Source of the DNA: an uncultured Desulfurococcaceae archaeon
Lineage (GTDB): Archaea; Thermoproteota; Thermoprotei_A; Sulfolobales; NBVN01
Reading direction: 5' to 3'
DNA: 64,000 bases
Assembly: GCA_964641155.1 (NCBI GenBank)
Contig: CAZXJO010000001.1
Coordinates: 232,765-296,764 of the forward strand
This document shows, piece by piece, positions 10,273 through 55,913 of this stretch. A program made the translations under genes and the position numbers. The notes below the pieces were generated by a model that saw nothing but the letters and a program-made list of their open reading frames with translations, had not been told where the DNA came from and searched no databases. How positions within the stretch are numbered: position 1 is the first letter of the stretch; each line of letters opens with the position of its first letter.

Positions 10273-11994
10273 ATGAAATTTAGTAAGTGGGTAGTGACGT
10301 CGGCGTGGCCGTACGTTAACACCGTACCGCACCTAGGTAACATGATTGGTAGTGTGTTGTCAGCCGACGTGTTTGCGAGGTACTTGAGATTACATGGCTA
10401 CGAGGTGGTGCTCGTCAGCGGGAGCGATGAGCATGGGACCGTTATAGAAGTCGAGGCTAGGAGGAAGGGTGTGGAGCCGCAGGAACTGACTAACGAGGCA
10501 CATGGTTATGTGAGCAAGCTATTCCGTGAGTGGGGCATATCATTCGATAACTACACCAGGACTGAGAGTGAAACACATAAGGAGTTCGTGAGCGACCTGA
10601 TGTTGAAGATGTACAAGAGGGGTTTCATAGAGGTTAGGGAGCAGATAATGCCGTACTGCGACGTAGATAACATATATTTGCCGGATAGGTTCATCGTCGG
10701 CATATGCCCCTACTGCGGATATGAGGATGCTAGAGGTGACCAATGCGATAGTTGCGGGAGATTGTTAAATCCTGAGGAGTTGGTTTCACCTAAATGTGTT
10801 TTCTGCTCAAGTAGGCCCATCTTCAAGGCGACCAAGCACTGGTTCTTCAGGTTAGATATGGTTGAGGACTTAGTAAGGGAGTGGTTGGAGAGGCATGAGC
10901 TGTTGGAGGACAACGTCAAGAACTACGCGATCTCATGGATTAAGATGGGGTTGAAACCGAGATCTGTGACAAGGGATAATAAGTGGGGTATTAAGGCACC
11001 CTTCCCAGGCGCGGATGATAAAACGATCTACGTCTGGTTTGAGGCACTATTAGGCTACATATCAGCCACAATAGAGTTTTTCAAGAGGGTGGGCTGTGAG
11101 GGAAGATGGCGTGAGTACTGGCTCAACAGCAACTCAGGTACGGCCTACTTCATAGGTAAGGATAACATACCCTTCCACGCGATTATATTGCCTGCGATGT
11201 TGATTGCGAGCGGTGACGGCTATAACCTACCTACGGTGATATCAGCTACTGAGTACCTGATGTTTGAGGGACAGAAATTCAGTAAGAGTAGGAGGGTCGG
11301 TGTCTGGATTGATGAGGCCTTAGAGATAGTGCCGGAACCTGATTACTGGCGATTTGCGTTGATTAGGATGAGGCCGGAAGGTAGGGACACTAACTTTTCA
11401 TGGACTGAGTTTGTGAGGATAATCAACAACGAACTAAACGATGATATAGGGAACTACATCCATAGGGTGTTAACGCTTATCAACAAGTTCTTCGGTGGGG
11501 TGGTGCCGACTCCTTCAAAGTACTCAAGCACTGACTACGAGTTCAGGGATAAGATCCTCGCCTCACTACGTAAGTACTGCGAGTACATGGACGTAGCTAA
11601 GATGAAACCGGCCTCAGACGCCATACTGGAACTCGCTAGGGCTGGGAATCAATACCTGAACGTTAAGGAGCCGTGGGCTAAAGCAAGAACTGATATAGAT
11701 GATGTCTCAACGACTCTGTACTTAGGGTTTGCTAGCGTGTACTGCCTGGGCCTGATGTTACTCCCTATAACGCCTAACTTTGCTTCAAACCTATTTAAGA
11801 TGTTAAACATAGATGTGAGTGAGCTAGGGCTTCGCTGCAATGAGGGCTTACCGCCAGCATCACCGCACAAAATAGGCAAGCCACAACCCCTCTTCAAAAA
11901 ATTGGACCCCAACTTCCTACAGAACATAGATTCAATAGTTAATGAGGCTAGGCACAGAGCTCAGCTGAAGAGGCCTGACATACTTAAGTGGTGA
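10273..11994 (+). CDS. metG: Methionyl-tRNA synthetase
   Basis: HIGH-type motif PYVNTVPHLGN, Zn knuckles CPYCGYEDARGDQCDSCG, KMSKS-type KFSKSRR. ATG at 10273; an alternative GTG lies at 10264. Confidence 0.95.
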   Translation: MKFSKWVVTSAWPYVNTVPHLGNMIGSVLSADVFARYLRLHGYEVVLVSGSDEHGTVIEVEARRKGVEPQELTNEAHGYVSKLFREWGISFDNYTRTESETHKEFVSDLMLKMYKRGFIEVREQIMPYCDVDNIYLPDRFIVGICPYCGYEDARGDQCDSCGRLLNPEELVSPKCVFCSSRPIFKATKHWFFRLDMVEDLVREWLERHELLEDNVKNYAISWIKMGLKPRSVTRDNKWGIKAPFPGADDKTIYVWFEALLGYISATIEFFKRVGCEGRWREYWLNSNSGTAYFIGKDNIPFHAIILPAMLIASGDGYNLPTVISATEYLMFEGQKFSKSRRVGVWIDEALEIVPEPDYWRFALIRMRPEGRDTNFSWTEFVRIINNELNDDIGNYIHRVLTLINKFFGGVVPTPSKYSSTDYEFRDKILASLRKYCEYMDVAKMKPASDAILELARAGNQYLNVKEPWAKARTDIDDVSTTLYLGFASVYCLGLMLLPITPNFASNLFKMLNIDVSELGLRCNEGLPPASPHKIGKPQPLFKKLDPNFLQNIDSIVNEARHRAQLKRPDILKW

Positions 11995-13267: not shown

Positions 13268-14680
13268 CTACGCACCTGAGGACCCAATACTCCTATGAGC
13301 CGGATGGTACTTCCGTATGTAATCCATGCTTATGAGCTTTAACTCACTTTCAGGTAATGTGGCGAGTAAGTCCCAACCTATGTCGAGCGTTTCCTCTATA
13401 GTCCTCCTTTCAAACTCGCCTTGATTTATGAACTTCCTCTCGAAGAGGTCTGCGAAGTTTAAGTACTTCCTGTCCCTATCGCTGAGTGATTCGCCACCCA
13501 CTATTGCTGTAAGCTCCCTTAAGTACTGCCCCTCAGCGTAGGCGGATATCAACTGCATGAAGACCTGGTAGTGGTCCTCTCTAGTTTTCCCAGGACCCAC
13601 GCCGTCCTTCATTAACCTAGAGAGCGATAGGAGGACGTCGACAGGTGGGTACACACCCTTCCTGAAGAGGTCTCTGGAGAGCACTATCTGACCCTCAGTT
13701 ATGTACCCCGTTAAATCAGGTATTGGATGCGTTATATCGTCGTCAGGCATTGTGAGTATGGGCATCTGGGTTATTGAGCCCTTCTTACCGCTTATCCTGC
13801 CAGCCCTCTCATATATCGTAGCCAGGTCGGTATACATGTATCCCGGATATCCACGCCTTCCAGGAACCTCCTCGCGAGCGGCGCTCAACTCCCTCAACGC
13901 CTCACAGTAATTCGTCATATCCAACATCAAAACCAGTACGTGTGTGTCATACCTCCAAGCCAGGAACTCGGCAATGGTTAGTGCGACTCTGGGAGTAGCT
14001 ATCCTCTCTATAGTCGGTGCTGAGGCAGTGTTAATCAGCGAGACAACGTTCTCCACCGACGAGGCACTCCTCAACGAGTTTATGAAGTAGTACGCATCTT
14101 CGTAAGTAACACCTATGGCTGCAAATACCACAGCAAAACGCTCCTCAGAACCCCTAACCCTTGCCTGCCTAACTATCTGAGTCGCCATCCTGTTGTGCGG
14201 TAGCCCCGCACCGCTGAATATGGGTAATTTCTGACCTCTAACTATGGACAGCAAACCATCAATTGATGACAAACCAGTTTCTATGAATTCTGAGGGGGGC
14301 AACCTACTTGCCGGGTTTATGGGTACGCCATTAATATCTAAGAAGTCCTCAGGAACTATTCCAGGGCCTCCGTCTATGGGTCTGCCAAGGCCGTCCAGCA
14401 CCCTGCCGAGCACGTCAACAGCTACCGGTATTCTGAGGGTTTCCCCCTTAAACCTAACCTTAGACGTTTTAACGTTAACCTCACTAACGCCTCCGAACAC
14501 TTGGATTACGGTGACATCCCTCGAGACATCGATCACCTGTCCCAGCCTTGACTCACCGCTCTCTAACATGACCTCAACGATCTCACCGTAACTTATCCCA
14601 GGAATGGACTTCACAAATAACAGCGATCCCTTAGCACTTAAGACGCTTCTTAACTCCTTAACAGACAGCATATGGCTCAA
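13268..14680 (-). CDS. atpB: A-type ATP synthase subunit B
   Basis: 470 aa with non-catalytic B-subunit patterns ([44 protein letters not shown]). Confidence 0.95.
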
Positions 14681-17600
14681 CCCACCGCCCTCATTAAATT
14701 GTTTAAGGATTCCTCTATCTCGTTAATGACGCTGTTGTAGAACTCTCTAAACTCCTTAGGATCTACTTCCTTCATCCTCGCGATTTTGACCCTGGCGGGT
14801 AGCTCCTTAATACTGTTTAAAGATACGCCGTGTAGTAATGCATCATAAGCCTTCCTATAGAACCTGAGTATTATGTCCATCATCAACAACGTTTTCTCAG
14901 GGGGTGAGTAGGAGTCTATGGGGTGGTAGGCACTTTGCTGCAGGAAGTCCTCCCTAATCATCCTGGACACCTCAAGTACGAGTTTATCCTGCTCTGGCAG
15001 GGCGTCAGGACCCACCAAACGGACTATTTCCATCAACTCAGCCTCCTTCTGGAGCAACCTTATGAACTCCCTCCTCAACTCACTCCAGGAGCTACCGAGC
15101 TTGGACCACCACGCGCTGACGTTATCAACGTATAACGAGTAACTCAATAACCAACTAACCGATGGGAAATGCCTTCTGTTAGCCAGCGAGACATCTAAGG
15201 AGATTAAAGTACCTATATACCTCAACGTGTTCTGAGTTACCGGTTCGCTGAAGTCTGCTCCCGGAGGTGAGACAGCCCCCACTATGGTCAGGGATCCGTT
15301 CCTGCTTGGACTCCCAACACATTCAACACGTCCCGACCTCTCGTAGAAGCTAGCAAGCCTAGAACCTAAGTAGGCTGGGAAGCCCTCCTCACCAGGCATT
15401 TCCTCCATCCTAGCGCTTATCTCACGCATCGCCTCAGCCCACCTAGAGGTTGAGTCAGCAACTAGGAGTACGTCATAACCCATATCTCTGAAGTACTCAC
15501 CTAAAGTAGCTCCTAAGAAGACGCTTGTCTCACGAGCTGCTACAGGCATGTTGGAGGTGTTGGCTATGAAGATGGCCTTCTCGTACAGCGGCCTACCGGA
15601 AGTCGGATCAACTAACCTCTTAAAGCTGTGCAAGGCATCAGCCATCTCATTACCCCTCTCCCCGCAACCTACGTAGATGTTTACTTGAGTCCTACTCCAC
15701 TTAGTCAGCGTCTGCAACAACACCGTATTATGGAATATCGTAGGTACGTAACCTCCAACAAAGTTATGAGTGCTGGGCACAACCAGGTCGTACACCACCG
15801 TAGGATTATGGATAACTTCCACCGATTTGACCTCATCCAAAGCTACACACTCATGAAGTCCTGAAACACCCTCAAGGCATTCGACAAGCTGATTCGAAGA
15901 ACCACTAACATTCATCGACATGGTCGTTAATTTAAGGGAAGCCCGTACCCCAACACTTTCCTCATCACATGGTCTGCTGCCTACGTAAGTACCCTCACTA
16001 CCTAGCGCCTCCTTAGGGACCACATCACGAACGTTCCTTAAGGCACCCATCGATGTAGGGAAAAACGCCCTAACCAGCCCTCCCTCATTACTACTGAGCA
16101 TGTGACCTCCCACTCCTCCCCAATCCTCAGCGGGGGCATCATTATGAAGGACTTTCTCAATGAATTTACGCGCTTCAGGAATCCTAGCTATGCAGATCGT
16201 GTTTCTCCCTTCACCTAAGTCCACGGTGTATAGGATGCCGAGCCTTGATAGCAAGTAGGTTGTACCTATAGCCAATTTCTTAGAGGAGGTTGTGAACTTT
16301 ATGACATCCCCGCTAACGGTTCCGCCGCCAAGGAACAATCCTCTAAGAAATGCCGTCACTACGTTGTTAGGAGCCCTCATAATAATTTCAGGAACCTCGT
16401 GTGTCTGTGGTTCCCCTACGTCGGGGATGCCGATGACCTTTAGCAATCTGACTACTAACGCTGACCGCACCTCCGCCCCGTTCGCGTTTCCGGACTCCTT
16501 TCTCTCAACCCCAAACACACTCTTCATCAAATCACTGACTCTTCGTAGGAGAACTTCATTGTTGCTGAAGAACATTACAGTCTGCCCGACGACCTTACCG
16601 TTAGACAGTATTAGACCGAGTAATTCAGCAAGCTCTTCAGTAACTCTGTCGGGTATCCTAACACTTTCCCCGCCCTCTCTCAATCCTAGTACTTTAGGAT
16701 GTCCTACACCCCCACCAACGATTCTGCTAACAGCAGCGATGAGCTTTAAAGGTATTGAAACTCCCTTGTGAACTAAAGCCTCTATCTCCTCCCTGGATAA
16801 GTTGGTCTCATCAACTAACTTGTCTATGGTACCCTCTCCCAACTTAAGTGATTGACGAAGTAATTCCCTAACCCTCCGATTAGTCTCCTCATCCCTGCTG
16901 ACGAGATCGTTGTAAACATTCAGCCTTTCTAAGGGTATCTCGGAAGCGGGTTCATCCCCAACCATCGGTATCTTTCTGGGGACAATGAGGAGCATCCCCG
17001 GCTTCAACTCCTTAGCTTTAAGCTCAAGCACCTTCCCATCAGGCTCATAGACCGGTAATCTATGGTCTGGGGTCACCTCAATTAACCTACCGCTGGAGGT
17101 CTTCACCCTAACTATTTCCTCAGTGAAGCCTCTATATACATGAGTCGCCACAGTAATCTTCAGTTCCCCACCACTGAATCCGTATACAGCTAGCGGCGGC
17201 TCTAACTCGTAAACCTCCTCAGCCACGCTTAAGTCTGGCTTACCTCCCTTAGCTTCCTCGAAGATTTTATCTATGATTTTAAGCGATCCGTCGGCCAACA
17301 GCACCGGTGTGCCGGGTACCACGCACTTACCTGAGCCGAACCCGCCCGGGACTGCCGCCTTACCCCCTACAGCTATGGGGAATAATGCGTCAAGAACTCT
17401 TGTGCCGGTCACTAGGAGCTCGGTAGGTTCTAACCTCCTGATGTATGGCCTTGCCTTCCTAATAGGCCACTCCTGATACATCATTACATCTAAGACTTCA
17501 TCACCTCTTCCAACTCTAGCTATGACTTCATCAACCCTGTAATCACCGTCGCTCACTAACTCCTTTAGGTAACCTGAGACGTTGGGCGGAACCATGATTT

Positions 17601-18045
17601 TATGCGTTATAAGTGGTGTCTCATCAACGTACCCTAAAACGTCGTTAGGTCCGACCTTATCACCTATTTTTAACCCCTTCTCCCTCCTGAAAAGCCATTT
17701 AACATCTCTAGGTAGTGGGGGTACTCTAACACCTCTCCTGACGAAGGGACCTGAAAGCACCTCCAACTCCGACAACGGTCTTTGAAGGCCGTCGAAGACC
17801 TTACCTATCAGACCCGGTCCCAACTCAGCTGAGAGCAACTTCCCGCCGCCCTCAACAGGCTCACCCACACTTAAACCCGACACGTCCTCGTATACCTGAA
17901 TGAATGCCCTGTCCCCTTGAATACCTATGATCTCACCTATCAGCCTTTCATTGCCCACGTAGACTACCTCATAGATCATCGAACCACGCATGTTCTCGGC
18001 AACGACTAACGGCCCTGAAATCCTCCAAATCCTACCTACGACCAT
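14677..18045 (-). CDS. atpA: A-type ATP synthase catalytic subunit A, interrupted by an intein
   Basis: 1122-aa ORF. The exteins (240 + 349 aa) reconstitute a normal 589-aa A subunit, with the P-loop GGFGSGK|[11 protein letters not shown] split by a 533-aa insert. Confidence 0.95.
15727..17325 (-). mobile_element. Intein in the atpA P-loop (VMA-type site), 533 aa
   Basis: It starts with Cys (TGC, 17325-17323) right after GSGK and ends ..IFHN (AAT, 15729-15727) followed by Thr. Block B is TPDH. LAGLIDADG-like motifs are [14 protein letters not shown] and [12 protein letters not shown]. Confidence 0.9.
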
Positions 18046-20749: not shown

Positions 20750-20845
20750 TGGGGCCGCGGCCGGGATTTGAACCCGGGACCTCGGGATCTCCACCTCTTC
20801 AGGAGCCCACAGTCCCGCGCTCTTCCAGGCTGAGCTACCGCGGCC
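20750..20845 (-). tRNA. tRNA-His (GUG) with an 18-nt intron at 37/38, encoded G-1 and CCA
   Basis: I folded the cloverleaf by hand. It has G-1, acceptor GCCGCGG/CCGCGGC with C73, D arm GCTC-AGCCTGGAA-GAGC, and anticodon stem CGGGA/TCCCG with loop CTGTGG|intron GCTCCTGAAGAGGTGGAG|A. The T arm is CCGGG-TTCAAAT-CCCGG, followed by a terminal CCA. Confidence 0.9.
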
Positions 20846-26349: not shown

Positions 26350-26514
26350 GTGTCTAGTAGGAAGAGGAAGAGTTCGGGACCTCAATCAGCGGCAGGTCTG
26401 GTTAGGTTCTTTGAGGATGTGGAGTCTAAGCTTACAATATCACCTGTGGCTTTACTTGTTCTGGCAGCGGTTTTCGTATCACTTGTAGTTGCTATGAACC
26501 TGCTAATCAAGTGA
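26350..26514 (+). CDS. Preprotein translocase subunit Sec61-beta (SecG, archaeal)
   Basis: 54-aa ORF, below the track cutoff, with a GTG start. Sequence MSSRKRKSSGPQSAAGLVRFFEDVESKLTISPVALLVLAAVFVSLVVAMNLLIK shows the AGL(V/I)R(F/Y) motif plus a C-terminal TM anchor. TATA TTTAAATT lies at 26313-26320. Confidence 0.7.
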   Translation: MSSRKRKSSGPQSAAGLVRFFEDVESKLTISPVALLVLAAVFVSLVVAMNLLIK

Positions 26515-26844
26515 ATTTAACTAACGGTTCACGACTCCAATAAACCCTGTAAATCTAGGCGTCCCTTGAGACCCCATTCCGCCACTAGTTTAGCAACCTC
26601 AGCTGTTTCCAAATTGACGGAGCAGAGTGTGTGGAGATGTGTGCTTAAACACCACCTTGGATGTCCCCCAGCTTACCTCTGAGCACCGTTATTGGGCGGT
26701 GTAGGGTCAACCCTTCATGATTGTTGATACCTATAAATGTTTGAAGAAGTTCTTAACTTATGCTTAAACATTAGTGTTGAATACGAGCTTGAACTTGTTA
26801 AGGTGGTTTTAAGTTTATTAGTTAACTTCATATTGTAAAAACAG

Positions 26845-27423
26845 ATGTCTGTGATACCATCACCAGATGAAATTAGGAGGATGAGGATAGCTGTTGGTTT
26901 AACACAGAAGGAGTTAGCTAGAATAGCCGGTGTTAGTCAATCACTAATAGCTAGGATTGAGAAAGGTAATGTCAACCCCAGGATGAATACGTTGAGGAAG
27001 ATACTGGACGCAATTAATAGGACATCAAAAACAAGTGAGACCGTGGAGAAAATCATGACGACACCTGTGCTCTCAGTCTACGTTGACGAACCGCTAACTC
27101 AGATAATAGACCTCATGGACTCTAAAGGCATTTCACAAGTCCCAGTACTTGATAAGGGTAATAGGATTGTGGGCATGATATATGAGTCAACGTTAGTGAA
27201 GATATTAAGAAGTAGGAAGGATTTGAGGAGGCTAACAGCTCTGGACGCAGTCGAACCACCACCACCTCAAGTACCTAAAGAAACACCTATATCACTCGTC
27301 GAATCACTTCTGCTAATCTATCCAGCGGTACTTGTCGTGGATAAAGATGGTGTGAAGGGAATTATAACGAAAATAGACCTTATAAAATACTACATGAGGT
27401 CACCAACTCTCGGTTCACCGTAG
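26845..27423 (+). CDS. XRE-type HTH + CBS-pair domain protein
   Basis: 192 aa with HTH LTQKELARIAGVSQSLIARIEKGNVNP followed by CBS-like repeats (IMTTPVLSV..., VLVVDKDGVKGIITKIDL). Confidence 0.75.
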   Translation: MSVIPSPDEIRRMRIAVGLTQKELARIAGVSQSLIARIEKGNVNPRMNTLRKILDAINRTSKTSETVEKIMTTPVLSVYVDEPLTQIIDLMDSKGISQVPVLDKGNRIVGMIYESTLVKILRSRKDLRRLTALDAVEPPPPQVPKETPISLVESLLLIYPAVLVVDKDGVKGIITKIDLIKYYMRSPTLGSP

Positions 27424-27485
27424 ATTTAGCGGTGGAACGAACCACTCAAGTATCGGACTTGTTGTAAAGTGGGACAATAGACCCA

Positions 27486-27506
27486 CTCCACTAGAAATGG
27501 AGGGGT
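27486..27506 (+). repeat. ORB-like element a
   Basis: CTCCACTAGAAATGGAGGGGT, 17/21 to the local consensus. Confidence 0.65.
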
Positions 27507-27553
27507 TCACATCACTTTTGAAACCAATGACATCAATCACAAATCAGAGGTAG

Positions 27554-27574
27554 ACCCCTAAATTTCCTGTGGAA
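27554..27574 (-). repeat. ORB-like element b (inverted)
   Basis: The reverse complement reads TTCCACAGGAAATTTAGGGGT, 19/21 to the consensus. The G-string is distal to the AT-rich core. Confidence 0.7.
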
Positions 27575-27584
27575 ACCCAACCCC

Positions 27585-27720
27585 ATAATATCTCAATATT
27601 AATGATGATGTAGATTAAATGTTTGTATAATTATCTCAATATAAAGAGATTTGGTCTCTCATAAATAATTCAACAAAATCACCAAACAAATTAAATAATG
27701 TAAATCAGAGTTACTCCAAA
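27585..27720. other. AT-rich putative duplex unwinding element
   Basis: I count about 30 G+C in 136 nt. It contains the direct repeat TATCTCAATAT at 27589-27599 and 27632-27642. Confidence 0.6.
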
Positions 27721-27724
27721 CGAG

Positions 27725-27745
27725 TTCCACATGAAGTTGAGGGGT
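27725..27745 (+). repeat. ORB-like element c
   Basis: TTCCACATGAAGTTGAGGGGT, 20/21 to the consensus. The G-string is distal to the AT-rich core. Confidence 0.7.
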
Positions 27746-27824
27746 ACCACCCATCGCAACATTTAATCATCAAAACACAGTCCCCTGACTGTTTGTTGTG
27801 GTGTGTGGGTGGGAATTAAGTGGG

Positions 27825-27845
27825 TTACAAATGAAACAGAGGGGT
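27825..27845 (+). repeat. ORB-like element d (degenerate)
   Basis: TTACAAATGAAACAGAGGGGT, 17/21 to the consensus. Confidence 0.55.
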
Positions 27846-27853
27846 GGTAAAGA

Positions 27854-29185
27854 TCATATTACCCAACTTCCCACGGGTTTTGTGTAGGTACATCGTTTCT
27901 CCTTACCGTACCTACATAGGGGTTTTGTTAGGTGCTTCATCATTCTAGTCCTTGTGGTGTATAGCTTATTTACATCTTCAACTGTCTCCACTACCACCTT
28001 GCTCATGCCCAACGTTTTAAACCCACATCTCTCACATTTGAATCCTTTGTTAGTACCGGCGGATTTCATGCGTGAGCCGCATGAAGGGCATTTGGGGTTA
28101 TGTACCTGTGTCCTAATCTTCCTCTTTATAAAGATTTTCTCCACGTTTATTACATTTAAGAAATTGCTCCACTGCTTAACCGACCCACATAATATTACTT
28201 CGTCATCTCTGCCCAACTCACTAGCGACCTTAGTTAACGACGTTTCTTTGTAGAACACCGCATATGCTGGTGGGTTGGTGTCTATTTCTACGATGACGTC
28301 ACCACCCCTTAAGTGCTCTGGTTTTGATTTTATGGTGGCCTCCACACATAACGTCCTATACGTTCGTACCTCATCCGAGCTTCTGTTAATCAAGTGTGAG
28401 TCAGTACCTTGATTACTTCTAAATATCATATAACCATCAAATTCCTCACATATGTTTAACTCGTTGAAGTACTTTACGAGGATTTCAGGCTCCTCCCCCC
28501 TTATGCCAACTAACACTGGGTTATAGCCGTGTGGTGTTATAAGGACTCTACCCTCCTCATAATCGTAATTGTTGAAGACATGGTCCCTGTACTTAAGGTC
28601 CACCCTCCTCACAGAGTCGTTATCCACACACCTGTCCTCATTAGCAGATGATTTGCGGTAGGCTATTAACTCGTAGGTGCAGTCCGAACCCTGAGCCCAC
28701 CCAATAGCTGCCAGAGCCCCCACAACACCTCTTGAAATCCCCGTGGGGAGGATTAAATTATGTGTTTTCTCTATGACGTTCATCACGTAGTCCCTATGTA
28801 CGAAATCCGTTAATGCCTTCATGTAAAGCTTACTTAGCGCTACCGGCACATCACCTACAACAGCTGCTAGGCCGGGCTCACAACCGCTCATATCTTCATA
28901 GTTCGATACGTAGTCCTCCACCATCTTCTTAATTATGTTAACCACTAGTTCGCACTCACTTTCAGGGACCGACATCCTTAGGGCTACAGCACCATTTCCT
29001 CTAGTTCTAAACGGTATTGAGGGGTTCAACCTAACTAGGTTTGGATAGTCCACGAAGTCTACATGTGTTGACCTCAGTAGTTCCTTAACCACCAGGTACG
29101 CAAGATGTGTTGTACACCCGTTGAACTGGGAATCTATATCGTCAAGTCCTACATGCAGTAACTTCCTCGAACGATCATCTGACAT
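27854..29185 (-). CDS. tiaS: tRNA(Ile2) 2-agmatinylcytidine synthetase TiaS-like protein
   Basis: 443 aa. It has N-terminal HVGLDDIDS..GCTTHLAY and LVRLNPSIPFRTRGNGAVAL, as in TiaS/DUF1743, and a C-terminal Zn ribbon CPSCGSRMKSAGTNKGFKCERCG. Confidence 0.7.
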   Translation of the reverse strand: MSDDRSRKLLHVGLDDIDSQFNGCTTHLAYLVVKELLRSTHVDFVDYPNLVRLNPSIPFRTRGNGAVALRMSVPESECELVVNIIKKMVEDYVSNYEDMSGCEPGLAAVVGDVPVALSKLYMKALTDFVHRDYVMNVIEKTHNLILPTGISRGVVGALAAIGWAQGSDCTYELIAYRKSSANEDRCVDNDSVRRVDLKYRDHVFNNYDYEEGRVLITPHGYNPVLVGIRGEEPEILVKYFNELNICEEFDGYMIFRSNQGTDSHLINRSSDEVRTYRTLCVEATIKSKPEHLRGGDVIVEIDTNPPAYAVFYKETSLTKVASELGRDDEVILCGSVKQWSNFLNVINVEKIFIKRKIRTQVHNPKCPSCGSRMKSAGTNKGFKCERCGFKTLGMSKVVVETVEDVNKLYTTRTRMMKHLTKPLCRYGKEKRCTYTKPVGSWVI

Positions 29186-31156: not shown

Positions 31157-33361
31157 ATGTCATCGCGAACACTTGCGGAACTTCTGTGGGTTGAGAAGTA
31201 CAGGCCGAAGACCCTATCAGAAATCGTTAACCAGGGAGATATTGTCAGGAGGTTACAACAGTTTGTTAAAGAGCGGAACATGCCACACCTACTGTTTGCG
31301 GGGCCTCCGGGAACCGGTAAGACGACAGCAGCCCACGCATTCGCTCACGATCTTTACGGCCCGGACTACAGGATGTACATGCTTGAGTTAAACGCATCTG
31401 TCTCCAAAAACACCCCAATACTTGTTAGGATGAACGGGAGGACAACCCTAACAACGTTTGCGGAGCTGGACAAGCTGTACTTCTCCGAATGTGATGGGGA
31501 CATATCATCTAAGGTAGTGAACGACCTAGAGGTTTTGACCATCGATGAGGACCTGAAGGTTAAGTGGGGGAGGGTCACCAGGATAATGCGGCATAAGGTA
31601 CCTGTCGTGTTGAGGCTGAAGTTAGAGCAGGGAGGTATCTTGGAGTTAACCGGGAACCACTCAATAATGGTACTGACTGAGGAGGGTTTGAAAGCTGTTA
31701 AAGCGAGTGAGTTAAAGGTCGGGGATTTCCTCCTCACCTTTACGGCAAACATTGAAGGAAGAGTTAACGTACCCCCAGTTAAACCAAGCATTCCTAAGCG
31801 TAGTGGTGAGGATGTAGCCATTGAGGGACCTACCTCAGAGGGAGGAACATTGTCGGCACATGCTTCAGAGGCTTCGGGACCTAACCCGTTCATGAATTGT
31901 ACACCTTCAGCCCCCAGCACACCTACCGCGAACTTCAATTATTTAGATGCTCTAAGCGCTGATCTAGTGAGATTTGTGAAAGGAGCTGCAGTTGGTTGTG
32001 TTGGTAATCAAACGGCTTACGGAAGGAGGATGCCATCATACATCTTCGACCTCCCAACATATGCACGCCTGAACTTCCTGAAGGGTTTGGTCTGGGGTGG
32101 CGGGGTTGGTGGGTTGTGTAGCGTAATTAGGCTGAGCTCGCCGTCGGCGGAAATGCTTACAGATATTGTGTGGTTAGGTAGGATCTCGGGTGTTGAAACA
32201 AGCCTGCAGGGAGATTGTGAGGTAAGACTTAATTGGGCAGATGGTGCTGAGTCGCGGAACTCGGGGTTAGTGAACCTCGCGTCGATTAGAAATCTTATAG
32301 AGAGATTATTGAACAAGGCTTCAGGGGACTGGAGGTATGTCCTGAGGCGTCAGCTATGTGAGGGGGAGGGGAGGATCAGTAAGGAGGAGCTCGCCAGAGC
32401 GATCAGCATGGTCAGCCCGGAGGGGCTTGATGGTGAAGAAAGGAAAGCTTTTGAATTATTGAGTAAGATAGCGAACTCAGACATTCATTCCATCAAGATA
32501 ACGGATATAGAGTTAGTGGAATATAACGACTATGTTTACGATGTAAGCGTTCCGGGGGGTGAGATGTTTTTCGCAGGAACAGTACCAGTGCTATTACACA
32601 ATTCCGATGAACGCGGCATTGACGTGATTAGGGGTAAGGTTAAGGAGTTCTCCAGGAGTAAGCTACCTGCCAACGTACCGTTCAAGATAGTACTGCTTGA
32701 TGAGTCGGATAACATGACAGCAGATGCTCAGCAGGCGCTCAGAAGGCTGATGGAGATGTACGTCGATGTGACACGCTTCATTTTGGTGGCGAACTACCCG
32801 AGCAAGATCATAGAGCCGATCCAGTCCAGGTGCGCTGTGTTCAGGTTCGTACCTCTCAGGAAGGAAGATGTTGTGGGTAGGTTGAGGTGGATCTGCAAGA
32901 ATGAAGGTATTAAATGTGATGAGGAGGCGTTAGAAGTCATACATGATATCTCTGAGGGTGATATGAGGAAGTCCATAAACATATTGCAGGCTTCTGCAAG
33001 CATAGGTGAGGTGAACGTATCAAACGTCTTTAAAGTTGTCGGGCTGGCGCATCCGAGGGAGGTTAGGGAAATGATGCAGTTAGTTCTCGAAGGTAAGTTC
33101 ATGGAGGCTAGAGACAAGTTACGTGAACTCATGATCACCTACGGTATCTCAGGGACTGATATAATCAAGCAGATCCATAGGGAGGTGTTCAGTCAGGAAC
33201 TGTCAATGCCCGAGCCCTTAAGGGTCGAAATCGCGGATTACTTAGGTGAGATTCAGTTTAGGCTGGTTGAAGGTGCTGACGAAGAGATTCAGTTAAACGC
33301 GTTGCTAGCCAAGTTAGCCTTACTTGGGAGAGCTGCTAAGACAATAAAACCTGCGAAGTGA
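31157..33361 (+). CDS. rfcS: Replication factor C small subunit, interrupted by an intein
   Basis: 734-aa ORF. The exteins (80 + 252 aa) give a normal 332-aa RFC-S with WVEKYRP, GPPGTGKTT, LELNA|SDERGIDVIR, LDESDNMT and SRC. Confidence 0.95.
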   Translation: MSSRTLAELLWVEKYRPKTLSEIVNQGDIVRRLQQFVKERNMPHLLFAGPPGTGKTTAAHAFAHDLYGPDYRMYMLELNASVSKNTPILVRMNGRTTLTTFAELDKLYFSECDGDISSKVVNDLEVLTIDEDLKVKWGRVTRIMRHKVPVVLRLKLEQGGILELTGNHSIMVLTEEGLKAVKASELKVGDFLLTFTANIEGRVNVPPVKPSIPKRSGEDVAIEGPTSEGGTLSAHASEASGPNPFMNCTPSAPSTPTANFNYLDALSADLVRFVKGAAVGCVGNQTAYGRRMPSYIFDLPTYARLNFLKGLVWGGGVGGLCSVIRLSSPSAEMLTDIVWLGRISGVETSLQGDCEVRLNWADGAESRNSGLVNLASIRNLIERLLNKASGDWRYVLRRQLCEGEGRISKEELARAISMVSPEGLDGEERKAFELLSKIANSDIHSIKITDIELVEYNDYVYDVSVPGGEMFFAGTVPVLLHNSDERGIDVIRGKVKEFSRSKLPANVPFKIVLLDESDNMTADAQQALRRLMEMYVDVTRFILVANYPSKIIEPIQSRCAVFRFVPLRKEDVVGRLRWICKNEGIKCDEEALEVIHDISEGDMRKSINILQASASIGEVNVSNVFKVVGLAHPREVREMMQLVLEGKFMEARDKLRELMITYGISGTDIIKQIHREVFSQELSMPEPLRVEIADYLGEIQFRLVEGADEEIQLNALLAKLALLGRAAKTIKPAK
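31397..32602 (+). mobile_element. Intein in rfcS, 402 aa, Ser1 type
   Basis: It begins with Ser (TCT, 31397) after LELNA and ends ..VLLHN (AAT, 32600-32602) followed by Ser. Block B is TGNH. It has a degenerate LAGLIDADG-like motif NFLKGLVWGGGVG and a low-complexity Pro/Ser/Ala linker. Confidence 0.85.
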
Positions 33362-33374
33362 TGAGGTTAAAGAT

Positions 33375-34760
33375 TTGAGGAAACTGCCTTGGGTAATAAA
33401 GTACAGACCTAAGAAGCTGGGTGACATAGTTAATCAAGAAGAGGCTAAGGAAGAGCTCATAAAGTGGGTTGAGTCGTGGCTTAGGGGAACACCTCAGGAG
33501 AAGGCGGTACTCCTTTACGGACCTCCCGGATGTGGGAAGACAAGCCTAACGGAAGCGTTGGCGAGGGAGTACGGCTTAGAGCTCATCGAAATGAACGCAA
33601 GCGACTACAGAAGGAGGCTCGACCTAGATAGGGTAGCCAGGGTTGCGGCACTTCAAAAGAGTATCGTGGGGAGGGCGAAGTTAATACTCTTAGATGAGGT
33701 GGACGGCATATCGGGGACCGCTGATGTGGGGGCTTTAGAAACGATCTTAGACATAATCAGGGCCACTATGAACCCCATAGTAATGACTGCCAACGATCCA
33801 TGGGACCCTAGGTTAAGGCCCCTGAGAGATGCTGTTAAGTTAGTTGAGTTTCGAAGACTTACTAAAACAGATGTCAAGAAGGTGCTGTTCAGGATATGTA
33901 ATGAGGAGAGATTAACATGTGATGAGGACGCCGTTGATTTCATAGCTGAAAGATGTGAGGGCGACCTAAGATCAGCTATAAATGACTTAGAGGCCGTCTC
34001 TGAGGGTTACGGAAAGGTCACCTTAGAATCTGTTAAGAGCTTACTAGGGCAGAGGAACAGGGAGTACCAGCCCTTCGACGTAGTTAGGAAGATCTTCATA
34101 TCTAAGTACGCCTGGCAGGCTAAGCAAGCTACGCAGCAAACAGACCTAACACCCGACGAACTCATACAATGGATTAACGAGAACTTACCTAGGCAGGTCT
34201 CAGACCCTGAAGACTTATGGCGGGCTTACGACCACCTCTCTAAAGCTGACGTATATATGGGTAGGATCGTTAAGACCGGTAGTTGGGACCTACTCTCCTA
34301 CGCAGTAGAGTTGATGTCTGCTGGGGTGTCCCTATCAATAATAAACGATGTTAAGGGCAAGTACAGATGGGTTAAGTATAACTTCCCTCAAAAAGTATTG
34401 ATAGCTGCCAAAACCAAGGAAACCAGGCAATTGAGGGATGAGCTAGCTGAGGTGGTGGGCAGGCATTTAAACGCATCTAAGGCTAAGGTTAAGTCCGACG
34501 TTCTGCCGTACCTTAAAATAATTTTTAACGTTAACGCTGAGGCCGCGGCCAGGCTTGCGTTGGGTTTGAACCTTACGGAGAACATGGTTAGGTACCTATC
34601 ACCGCAGAATTCGTCTAGGATCATAGAGCTGATGCACAAGCTTAAGGTTGAGTCCAGTAAGAAGGTGGAGAAGTCGAAGCAGGGAAAACCGAGTGAAAGA
34701 AGACCGGATACGAAAGGTAGGCCAGGCACGTTAGACGGTTACCTAATGGACAAACATTAA
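33375..34760 (+). CDS. rfcL: Replication factor C large subunit
   Basis: 461 aa with PWVIKYRPKKL, GPPGCGKTS, LLDEVDG and a basic C-terminal tail. Confidence 0.9.
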   Translation: MRKLPWVIKYRPKKLGDIVNQEEAKEELIKWVESWLRGTPQEKAVLLYGPPGCGKTSLTEALAREYGLELIEMNASDYRRRLDLDRVARVAALQKSIVGRAKLILLDEVDGISGTADVGALETILDIIRATMNPIVMTANDPWDPRLRPLRDAVKLVEFRRLTKTDVKKVLFRICNEERLTCDEDAVDFIAERCEGDLRSAINDLEAVSEGYGKVTLESVKSLLGQRNREYQPFDVVRKIFISKYAWQAKQATQQTDLTPDELIQWINENLPRQVSDPEDLWRAYDHLSKADVYMGRIVKTGSWDLLSYAVELMSAGVSLSIINDVKGKYRWVKYNFPQKVLIAAKTKETRQLRDELAEVVGRHLNASKAKVKSDVLPYLKIIFNVNAEAAARLALGLNLTENMVRYLSPQNSSRIIELMHKLKVESSKKVEKSKQGKPSERRPDTKGRPGTLDGYLMDKH

Positions 34761-34765
34761 TTAAC

Positions 34766-35026
34766 TCAACCGTTTAAGGCCCTCAACATATCCTCTATAT
34801 ACCTTACACGTGGGTTAACCCAGTTAGGCCTGTATATCTTAACCCTACCTAACCGTATTTCATCAATGATGTTACACGATTTTAAGTAGTTGATATGCCT
34901 GGTGACTGAGGCGTAGTTCAACCTCGTCTCCCTAATTATCGACGTCAAGTTTATCTCACCATGAAATAAAATAGCCTTAAGCACCTTCACCCTACCCCTG
35001 CTAGAGAATATGTCTTCAAAACTCAT
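34766..35026 (-). CDS. Winged-helix (ArsR-like) DNA-binding protein, coupled to orc1/cdc6
   Basis: 86 aa (RGRVKVLKAILFHGEINLTSIIRETRLNYASVTRHINYLKSCNII). Its start overlaps the orc1/cdc6 stop by 4 nt. Confidence 0.6.
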   Translation of the reverse strand: MSFEDIFSSRGRVKVLKAILFHGEINLTSIIRETRLNYASVTRHINYLKSCNIIDEIRLGRVKIYRPNWVNPRVRYIEDMLRALNG

Positions 35027-36291
35027 TGACCATTACCTTCATACGCTACCTTAACCTTAAGTAGCTCATCAACCTTAGCTTTGATAATGTTTAAAGGTGC
35101 TAGACTTACCGATATATACGTGCTCCTCCCCCTCCTACCCTTGAACGATGTCGAAGAAATCAGTATCCCTAACCTCCTCAGATTCACTATGTACTCGTAG
35201 AGCTTCGTATGCTTTCTGGGCTCAACACCGTAGTCCTCACATAGTCTGTGATATATTTCCTCAACCAACCCGGTGTTCACGTAGGGTTCCCCACTCTCCA
35301 TTAACGCAGTTACTATAGCCTTTAACGTAAGTAGTTCATGAAGGCTTAAGTACGGCAGCGTATCATTCAAAGTCACAGCATCGGGTTCGACTATCGAGCA
35401 AGCCTTCCTTACATGGTCTAATGATATGCTCATAGCACCTTCCCTTTCAGCTATCTCACCAGCTATTAAGAGTATCTCAAGGGCGGCTCTGGCGTTCCCA
35501 GGACCGCCTTTATCGCTGCCCACAACATCGGATATGTATCTTAAGACATCGTCGGAGACAGCTCCTTCAAATATCGATTCATCAGCCCTAGACCTAAGTA
35601 TGTCGTAGAGCTCATGCGATTTATAGGGATTGAACATCACTAGGTTCTTCATCAGGTAGGACTCCGTAGTGGGGTCCAACATCGACAGTGATGTGGCGGA
35701 CTTACTTATGAATATGAAGTTCAACCTCTTAACCTTATCCGGGAACTCGTCATAAACTCTAACTAGGAAGTAGACAGCATCGCTCCCGGCGACGTTGATG
35801 AAGTAGTCGAACTCATCTAAAGCAGCCACCACGTACATGTTCTCGCTATCCACTAATTCCAACATGTAGTTGAGGACCTCCCTCACTGATAAACCCCTCT
35901 GAGGTATCGGGAGCCTCAACTGCCTAACAATCTCGTTCACGACCTCGAATAACGTGCGGTCTCTGTGGCAATTTACGTGGACATAGTTTACGTTTAACCC
36001 CCTCTTCTTAGCTATTTGAGTGAATTCCTTGCCGAATATTCGAGCAGTGACCGTTTTACCGGTGCCGATACCGCCCACCACGAGGGCTTTATGGCTTATC
36101 GTCCCAGGCGTTAGGAGCATTGGCTTGAATATGTTCGCAAGCGTTTTCAGCTCGTTTTCCCTGTGTGGGAGGGAGTTCGGTAAGTACTCAGGGTACAACT
36201 TCTCCTTACTCTTAAACAGTGATACCCTATTCAATTCACTTTCAATTATGTTACGAACGTCACTCAACACTTTCACCAAACTCAAGTCCAC
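35023..36291 (-). CDS. cdc6: Orc1/Cdc6 replication initiator
   Basis: 422 aa with PEYLPNSLPHRENEL, Walker A GGIGTGKTVTA, Walker B ALDEFD and a C-terminal winged helix. Confidence 0.9.
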   Translation of the reverse strand: MDLSLVKVLSDVRNIIESELNRVSLFKSKEKLYPEYLPNSLPHRENELKTLANIFKPMLLTPGTISHKALVVGGIGTGKTVTARIFGKEFTQIAKKRGLNVNYVHVNCHRDRTLFEVVNEIVRQLRLPIPQRGLSVREVLNYMLELVDSENMYVVAALDEFDYFINVAGSDAVYFLVRVYDEFPDKVKRLNFIFISKSATSLSMLDPTTESYLMKNLVMFNPYKSHELYDILRSRADESIFEGAVSDDVLRYISDVVGSDKGGPGNARAALEILLIAGEIAEREGAMSISLDHVRKACSIVEPDAVTLNDTLPYLSLHELLTLKAIVTALMESGEPYVNTGLVEEIYHRLCEDYGVEPRKHTKLYEYIVNLRRLGILISSTSFKGRRGRSTYISVSLAPLNIIKAKVDELLKVKVAYEGNGQ

Positions 36292-55458: not shown

Positions 55459-55641
55459 TTAAGCTGGGTAGTCGTCCGGAACCTTAGCTCTGAAGTACTT
55501 ACCTGATTCAGGGCTCTTAAAGAGACCTATCTTAACCCCTTTCCTGCCTTTAGGCGCTAAAGTCCACACTTTCTCCGGAGCTAGCTGGACCTCTTTACCT
55601 GTTGTCGGGTCCTTAACTTTTACAGGTGCTTTCTTGGACAT
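55459..55641 (-). CDS. cren7: Chromatin protein Cren7
   Basis: 60 aa from the ATG at 55641: [60 protein letters not shown]. This closely follows the Cren7 pattern (..[35 protein letters not shown]). Confidence 0.9.
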
Positions 55642-55913
55642 GGCTATATCACCATGATAGTAATGGTTAATCATTGTTTAAAGGTTATGTAAGACCTTTA
55701 AAGTACAATAATTATTATAAATAAAAAATTCCTTAAAAAATTTGAAGGATTACTTTAATAATGAATTCATGAACAACGCCAATTATCGACTAAACATGAT
55801 CAGGGTTTTTAATTACATAATTAAAACATTAAAGAGTGTTAATCTGAAGTACTACACGATGTCATAAGAGTGCCATGAACTTAGCTCGAGAAGTGGCTGG
55901 AGGTGTAGTGTGG

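Follow-up and report, generated by a model that had tools for sequence, protein, structure and literature searches.

A predicted oriC1-type replication origin beside tiaS, apart from its initiator gene, in an uncultured Desulfurococcaceae archaeon

A 430-bp intergenic gap in the genome of an uncultured Desulfurococcaceae archaeon is, on the evidence of its sequence, very probably an oriC1-type chromosomal replication origin. The gap (27424-27853) lies in a window of 64,000 nucleotides (GenBank assembly GCA_964641155.1, contig CAZXJO010000001.1, positions 232,765 to 296,764 of the forward strand), to which all coordinates refer. It holds four origin recognition boxes (ORBs), the inner two inverted around an AT-rich duplex-unwinding element (DUE) that contains the 11-bp element known as ucm. 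A sequence-only reading of the window had already called the gap an oriC, and that proposal now gains the support, at the level of sequence analysis, of a box-for-box match to Aeropyrum pernix Ori1, an exact ucm and a conserved genomic position. Orc1-1 binding, unwinding and firing in vivo are predicted for the gap by analogy with such origins.

The boundaries of the gap, taken from the map of open reading frames (ORFs) and from Pfam, are the stop of a plus-strand gene for a protein with an HTH_3 domain and a CBS pair (HTH-CBS; 26845-27423) and the stop of the minus-strand gene tiaS, which encodes tRNA-Ile2 agmatidine synthase (27854-29185). Both flanking genes were recognised with Pfam; the first is treated here as context only, the second as a conserved positional anchor. 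No ORF inside the gap exceeds 41 amino acids, in agreement with the earlier description of a 430-bp ORF-free stretch. Because the gap lies between two convergent 3' ends, no promoter is needed there, and promoter elements do not explain its conservation.

The four boxes are the core of the case. Each is 21 nt long, and the coordinates, strands and match counts that the sequence-only reading had given were reproduced exactly. Scored against the local 21-nt consensus TTCCACATGAAATTGAGGGGT, ORB a (outer left, CTCCACTAGAAATGGAGGGGT, 27486-27506, +) matches at 17 of 21 positions, ORB b (inner left, TTCCACAGGAAATTTAGGGGT on the minus strand, 27554-27574) at 19, ORB c (inner right, TTCCACATGAAGTTGAGGGGT, 27725-27745, +) at 20 and ORB d (outer right, TTACAAATGAAACAGAGGGGT, 27825-27845, +) at 17. 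All four differ from the ORB core, TCCA-N3-GAAA plus a G-string, by no more than one mismatch. Boxes b and c are inverted with 150 bp between them, and a reading of the sequence bears out the earlier remark that their G-strings point outward, away from the AT-rich stretch. In position and orientation, a, b, c and d are the counterparts of A. pernix ORB1, ORB2, ORB3 and ORB4, which the supplement of PMC8287685 prints in the order ORB1 (+), ORB2 (-), AT-rich stretch, ORB3 (+), ORB4 (+). That origin is bound by Orc1-1, and on binding it becomes sensitive to P1 nuclease between ORB2 and ORB3 (PMC8287685). The ORB-like composition noticed before holds up against this published standard: a, b, c and d are identical to the A. 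pernix ORB1/ORB4 sequence CTCCACAGGAAACGGAGGGGT at 18, 17, 16 and 16 of 21 positions.

Such a cluster is far from what base composition would give. The full 21-mer, with up to three mismatches, finds two matches in the window (0.01 expected). Its core TCCAnnnGAAAnnnAGGGG, with at most one mismatch, finds four, all within 360 bp and all in this gap, where 0.1 would be expected per 64 kb; the rest of the window holds no copy at that threshold. Two or more core matches inside 400 bp arose in none of 300 Markov simulations.

Between the inner boxes lies the AT-rich DUE (27575-27724). Its core (27585-27720), put at about 22% G+C in the sequence-only reading, measures 22.1% and ranks second in A+T content among the 136-nt stretches of the window, of which only 0.06% are equally low. 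The lowest-GC 80-mer of the gap begins at 27626, and an AT-rich core sits at the same place in all orthologous loci. Within it, on the minus strand at 27621-27631, is ATTATACAAAC, an exact match over 11 bp to the ucm of Sulfolobus acidocaldarius oriC1, whose sequence was deduced from the wild-type and mutated oligonucleotides of PMC12141716. The 64 kb hold no second exact copy, and 0.06 would be expected. Dhanaraju et al. reported in 2025 that S. islandicus oriC1 requires an 11-bp ucm inside its DUE, that this element binds UBP, a nucleoid protein in contact with MCM, and that both A. pernix origins have it as well (PMC12141716). UBP itself is reported from Desulfurococcales and Sulfolobales only (PMC12141716), a range that includes the host lineage. 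The DUEs of 12 related loci and that of A. pernix Ori1 also hold a ucm, either exact or with one or two mismatches.

The sequence around ucm carries further structure. The 11-nt direct repeat seen earlier, twice, 43 nt apart, was recovered by a repeat search as TATCTCAATAT(T/A)AA (27589-27645, +). The second TATCTCAATAT copy abuts ucm, and its TATCTC part is a piece of a conserved extension, GAGATAATTATACAAAC, on the minus strand; in the alignment this extension is present in the window and in two related loci (L002 and L003), while a third (L012) has GTGATAATTATACAAAC, with one change. The S. acidocaldarius oligonucleotide has TCAATAT adjoining ucm (ATTATACAAAC-TCAATAT), and in the window (27621-27642) the same heptamer stands on the other side of ucm, inverted (ATATTGAGATA-ATTATACAAAC); it may belong to an extended or symmetric UBP site, or may be chance in AT-rich DNA. 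An independent short-read assembly of the same sequence (L001, a Logan contig of SRR14424468) breaks at about 27713, inside the AT-rich core.

Comparison across genomes points to selection on these parts. A tiaS profile built from an alignment brought in 80 loci from species-representative genomes, which were scanned for the ORB core. Thirteen related loci have one cluster of two to four boxes each. The cluster lies directly 3' of tiaS in nine (L002, L003, L004, L006, L008, L009, L010, L011 and L012, among them a metagenome-assembled genome (MAG) of Pyrodictiaceae, L008, and Ignisphaera, L011) and 1-4 kb from tiaS in three (L022, L048 and L059); in the cultured Pyrolobus fumarii (L082) it is just beyond the HTH-CBS gene as seen from tiaS. 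Among the fetched tiaS loci, those of Bathyarchaeia and Nitrososphaeria yielded no ORB cluster in the scan. The loci total 1.29 Mb, and 35 of their 39 ORB-core matches fall within the single per-locus clusters, so the motif is no dispersed repeat.

Seven orthologous origins were aligned to gauge conservation, and all have the same arrangement: outer box, inner box, an AT-rich core holding ucm in exact or nearly exact form, inverted inner box, outer box. Pairwise identity is 79% for box a, 67% for b, 71% for c and 71% for d, and 60% for ucm, against 28% for the remaining, spacer, columns. Boxes at 67-79% beside spacers at 28% are the footprint of selection on the boxes and not on the spacers. 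The tiaS proteins across these lineages are themselves 40-67% identical. One further conserved block, GTGGG-N6-GTGGG (CCCAC..CCCAC on the other strand), flanks ORB d at 27806-27824 (+), with 61% pairwise identity in the alignment against the 28% of spacers. It directly adjoins the outer box d also in L002, L003, L004, L008 and L012, and the printed A. pernix Ori1 sequence has no counterpart of it.

The left-hand neighbour is less constant than tiaS. HTH-CBS and tiaS converge across the origin in the window and in L002, L003, L008, L009, L010 and L022; the HTH-CBS gene is not beside the origin in L004, L006, L011, L012 and L059. In P. fumarii (CP002838; 9692-10590 of the locus) HTH-CBS and tiaS are 8 bp apart, and on the upstream side of HTH-CBS are three ORBs together with a ucm-like AT-rich core. 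The remaining ORB of the four (10572-10590) is part of the HTH-CBS coding sequence, at its 3' end, and is translated there as ...LQWNQRGG, so that the gene stands between two boxes of the origin. No ORBs were found at the HTH-CBS locus of Sulfodiicoccus (L084) or within 10 kb of the Orc1-2 gene of Hyperthermus butylicus (L086), and neither Orc1-2 nor HTH-CBS alone therefore marks an origin. No A. pernix protein appears in the lists of HTH-CBS and tiaS homologues. A lone perfect ORB core, TCCAGTGGAAACGAAGGGG, lies at the extreme end of the locus fetched from a Nitrososphaera MAG (L068, 21261-21279), and could mark that genome's own origin just past the fetched DNA.

By homology, the origin would work as follows. 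Orc1-1 monomers, encoded elsewhere in the genome, would bind the four ORBs with defined polarity. The inversion of the inner boxes b and c turns their TCCA, or dyad, ends towards the 150-bp AT-rich element and their G-strings away from it. ATP-bound Orc1-1 at b and c would then recruit MCM helicase to this element, whose strands would separate, and UBP on the 11-bp ucm would promote activation, as it does in Sulfolobus, where it is needed for productive origin activation. Forks would then leave bidirectionally.

Which gene encodes the predicted initiator? The sequence-only reading had singled out the gene at 35023-36291 (-) as the only orc1/cdc6 of the window, about 7.3 kb from the gap, and a phmmer search with its protein against ORFs of at least 80 amino acids returned nothing other than itself, hence no further Orc1 paralogue, orc1-3 included, in the window. 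No initiator-like ORF appeared among the ORFs scanned with Pfam either, a scan that included no search aimed at whiP. The gene is, from sequence comparison, an Orc1-2/Cdc6-2-type paralogue outside the origin, and is treated as context only. This assignment draws on scores against PDB structures and on gene neighbourhood. The protein scores 193 bits against 1FNN (Pyrobaculum aerophilum Cdc6) and 188 bits against 1W5S (A. pernix ORC2), and lower against the ORB-binding initiators 2QBY_A (Saccharolobus solfataricus Cdc6-1; 161) and 2V1U (A. pernix ORC1; 158). Genes for RFC-s and RFC-l (31157-33361 and 33375-34760, +) lie beside it, the same island that S. solfataricus cdc6-2 forms with RFC-s and RFC-l (PMC2643942). 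In H. butylicus the RFC-s/RFC-l/Cdc6-2 island extends into GINS and MCM.

The distinction matters for the choice of protein in binding experiments. No origin of S. islandicus requires Orc1-2, nor is the protein seen at its origins in vivo (PMC3607249), and in A. pernix Orc1-1 alone binds the four ORBs (PMC8287685; PMC5333045). The electrophoretic mobility shift assay that the sequence-only reading had proposed with the protein of 35023-36291 would probably employ the wrong factor, since that protein is an Orc1-2 and not the ORB-binding initiator; it should not serve as the protein for tests of box binding. With no other Orc1 paralogue in the window, the predicted initiator gene would be separated from the gap by over 27 kb in one direction and over 36 kb in the other. 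The same reading was right that the gap is uncoupled from an initiator gene, in that no Orc1 gene adjoins it, but this is not novel: neither cdc6 gene of A. pernix adjoins an origin (PMC5333045), and an Orc1 gene is adjacent to the origin in none of the 13 related loci. The flanks of these 13 origins, 2-12 kb long, contain no Orc1 homologue other than Orc1-2, and Orc1-2 itself is there only in L002 and L003, the two closest relatives. An adjacent orc1-1 or cdc6-1 gene, a trait of the oriC1 type that is absent from the window, is thus typical and not universal, A. pernix lacking it too.

Several observations weigh against an origin at the gap. The 1-kb GC-skew profile follows gene strand and has no clear switch at 27.6 kb, though such skew is a poor guide in crenarchaea with several origins. 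The two neighbouring genes run towards the gap and not away from it, and the TCCA part of box d is degenerate (TTACA). The trans-acting factors are assumed, and their genes were not found in the window: concatenated small ORFs of the 64 kb gave no match to the UBP structures 9EFD, 9EFE and 9EFF in PDB, a result uninformative for the whole genome. Archaeal genomes, moreover, may contain dormant origins (PMC4595724).

Could the gap be a relic of this kind? A descendant of oriC1 might still bind Orc1-1 and no longer fire, replication starting elsewhere, and the existence of archaeal dormant origins (PMC4595724), the lack of an adjacent initiator gene and the degenerate box d would all fit. A relic would be expected to decay, however, and the conservation of every component makes one unlikely: four boxes, AT-rich core and exact ucm are under apparent purifying selection across lineages in which tiaS is only 40-67% identical and the spacers are randomised. 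It is less likely still that the gap is a regulatory array of protein sites unrelated to replication, used for instance by an Orc1-2 damage-response regulator or by the HTH-CBS protein to act on nearby genes or local chromatin. Sulfolobus Orc1/Cdc6 proteins do have many binding sites outside origins (PMC3607249), the Orc1-2 gene is 7.3 kb off and an HTH gene is adjacent; yet the gap separates two 3' ends and precedes no gene, and its boxes are canonical Orc1-1 ORBs in the exact four-box layout of A. pernix Ori1, with a DUE and ucm in addition. Proximity to Orc1-2 or HTH-CBS is, besides, lost in many related loci, that to Orc1-2 in 10 of 13, and HTH-CBS occurs without ORBs in Sulfodiicoccus.

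A non-coding RNA gene, or a terminator region of the two convergent genes, would account for a plus-strand RNA-fold z-score of -2.4 and for a hairpin with 12-nt arms (27771-27798), 56 nt past the tiaS stop. This reading is highly improbable. Rfam gives no match in 27350-27950, at its gathering thresholds or at E<=1; the minus-strand z-score is -1.0; the plus-strand fold signal, itself weak, is accounted for by boxes a and b, which are inverted relative to each other; and the conserved blocks are those of the ORBs and ucm, not helices. A terminator hairpin is also compatible with an origin. The hairpin (CAAAACACAGTC/GACTGTTTGTTG) stands between boxes c and d, with TTTT after it on the tiaS strand, and may be a tiaS terminator inside the origin. 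That the boxes are copies of a dispersed repeat or of a miniature inverted-repeat transposable element, or a chance cluster of motifs in an AT-rich spacer, might be read from their shortness and imperfection (17-20 of 21). The sequence-only reading had itself named dispersal among the findings that would overturn it, and the search for other copies effectively refutes this explanation, which is almost certainly wrong: there are none elsewhere in the 64 kb, in the 1.29 Mb of related loci the matches come almost only in clusters at or near tiaS, one to a locus, and no simulation produced a cluster.

The oriC1-type origin thus proposed is ordinary for its clade and belongs to a well-known crenarchaeal type. 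Two things appear modestly new. One is that a wide set of lineages has in common both the uncoupling from the initiator gene and the anchoring of oriC1 at tiaS, HTH-CBS often forming the opposite flank; the other is that the window has the Sulfolobus ucm unchanged over all 11 positions. The HTH-CBS gene is kept beside the origin in many lineages, and between boxes in P. fumarii, and these facts raise the idea of a cis-linked origin regulator whose CBS pair would sense adenine nucleotides and couple energy state to initiation. We regard this as a long shot. A weaker and better-supported version is that the anchoring of oriC1 at tiaS and its separation from orc1-1 both date back to the common ancestor of a broad group whose members are labelled Desulfurococcales, Pyrodictiaceae or Ignisphaera; if so, the uncoupling is no peculiarity of A. 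pernix.

These results would fix the position of an origin in an uncultured hyperthermophile lineage from sequence alone, and four ORBs with a ucm, 3' of tiaS, offer a compact signature for annotating crenarchaeal MAGs. Separation of replicator from initiator, so far cited for A. pernix, would become the rule across a wider clade, which bears on the notion of origins travelling with their initiator genes. The recently described ucm/UBP element would also extend, as an exact 11-mer, well beyond Sulfolobaceae.

The surroundings of the origin are those of an ordinary core chromosome, with no integrated element. Besides the genes already named, the window encodes reverse gyrase, the primase large subunit, MetRS, an A-type ATPase, GGGP synthase, Sec61-beta, a MazG-like protein, Tsr3, RNase P RNA, Nop5, GatD/E, topoisomerase III, thermosome, SAM synthetase and Cren7. 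The closest relatives are MAGs labelled "Sulfolobales archaeon" at NCBI, with 87-89% Orc1 identity, and the nearest named organisms are Hyperthermus, Pyrodictium and Pyrofollis, with about 53-56% Orc1-2 identity. Inteins split the RFC small subunit (31157-33361, +) and the catalytic subunit of the A-type ATPase (14677-18045, -), the latter intein also bearing a LAGLIDADG domain. A tRNA gene at 20750-20844 (-) scores 57 bits with the Rfam tRNA model, and ARAGORN gives it a 4-base anticodon, 'gtgg', and no amino acid; the gene probably contains an intron. Between Sec61-beta (26350-26514) and the HTH-CBS start, a stretch of about 330 bp (26515-26844), G+C-rich at about 26520-26700, has no ORF and no Rfam match. 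The most AT-rich spot of the window (near 55697, 19.9% G+C) was considered as a second origin and rejected, having neither ORBs nor ucm. It belongs, within 55459-55830, to the upstream region of cren7, a gene for a chromatin protein (Pfam Cren7, E=2e-30).

Among known origins, A. pernix Ori1 (NC_000854 444,909-445,231) was reportedly described by Grainge et al. in 2006 and by Robinson and Bell in 2007. Like the window, it has four full ORBs, complete with G-strings and identically ordered and oriented (+, -, AT-rich, +, +), and no adjoining cdc6 gene. Its AT-rich core contains a ucm-like element, ATGATACAAAA, where the window has ATTATACAAAC. The two differ in base composition, the core of the window being much richer in A+T (22% G+C; the lowest 80-nt value in Ori1 is about 29%), in that boxes c and d are 100 nt apart instead of about 47 nt, and in the strand of ucm, which is opposite relative to the boxes.

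The oriC1 of Sulfolobus and Saccharolobus depends on Orc1-1 and was reportedly described by Robinson et al. in 2004 (see also PMC12141716). Like the window, it has inverted ORBs around an AT-rich DUE, G-strings outward, and an 11-bp ucm in the DUE, with the S. acidocaldarius sequence, ATTATACAAAC, identical. The window differs in having four ORBs and in the distance over which an initiator gene is missing, at least 27 kb to one side and at least 36 kb to the other. The ucm is present too in Sulfolobus oriC2, which uses Orc1-3, in oriC3, which uses WhiP, and in A. pernix oriC2. These origins have other initiators, encoded beside them (PMC3607249), whereas the boxes of the window are canonical ORBs of the Orc1-1 type. 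The oriC of Pyrococcus (PMC1904270) differs in its many mini-ORBs, its adjacent island of cdc6, PolD and RFC genes and its lack of ucm, and it shares with the window an AT-rich region and the same ORB core of the TCCA..GGAAA..GGGG type.

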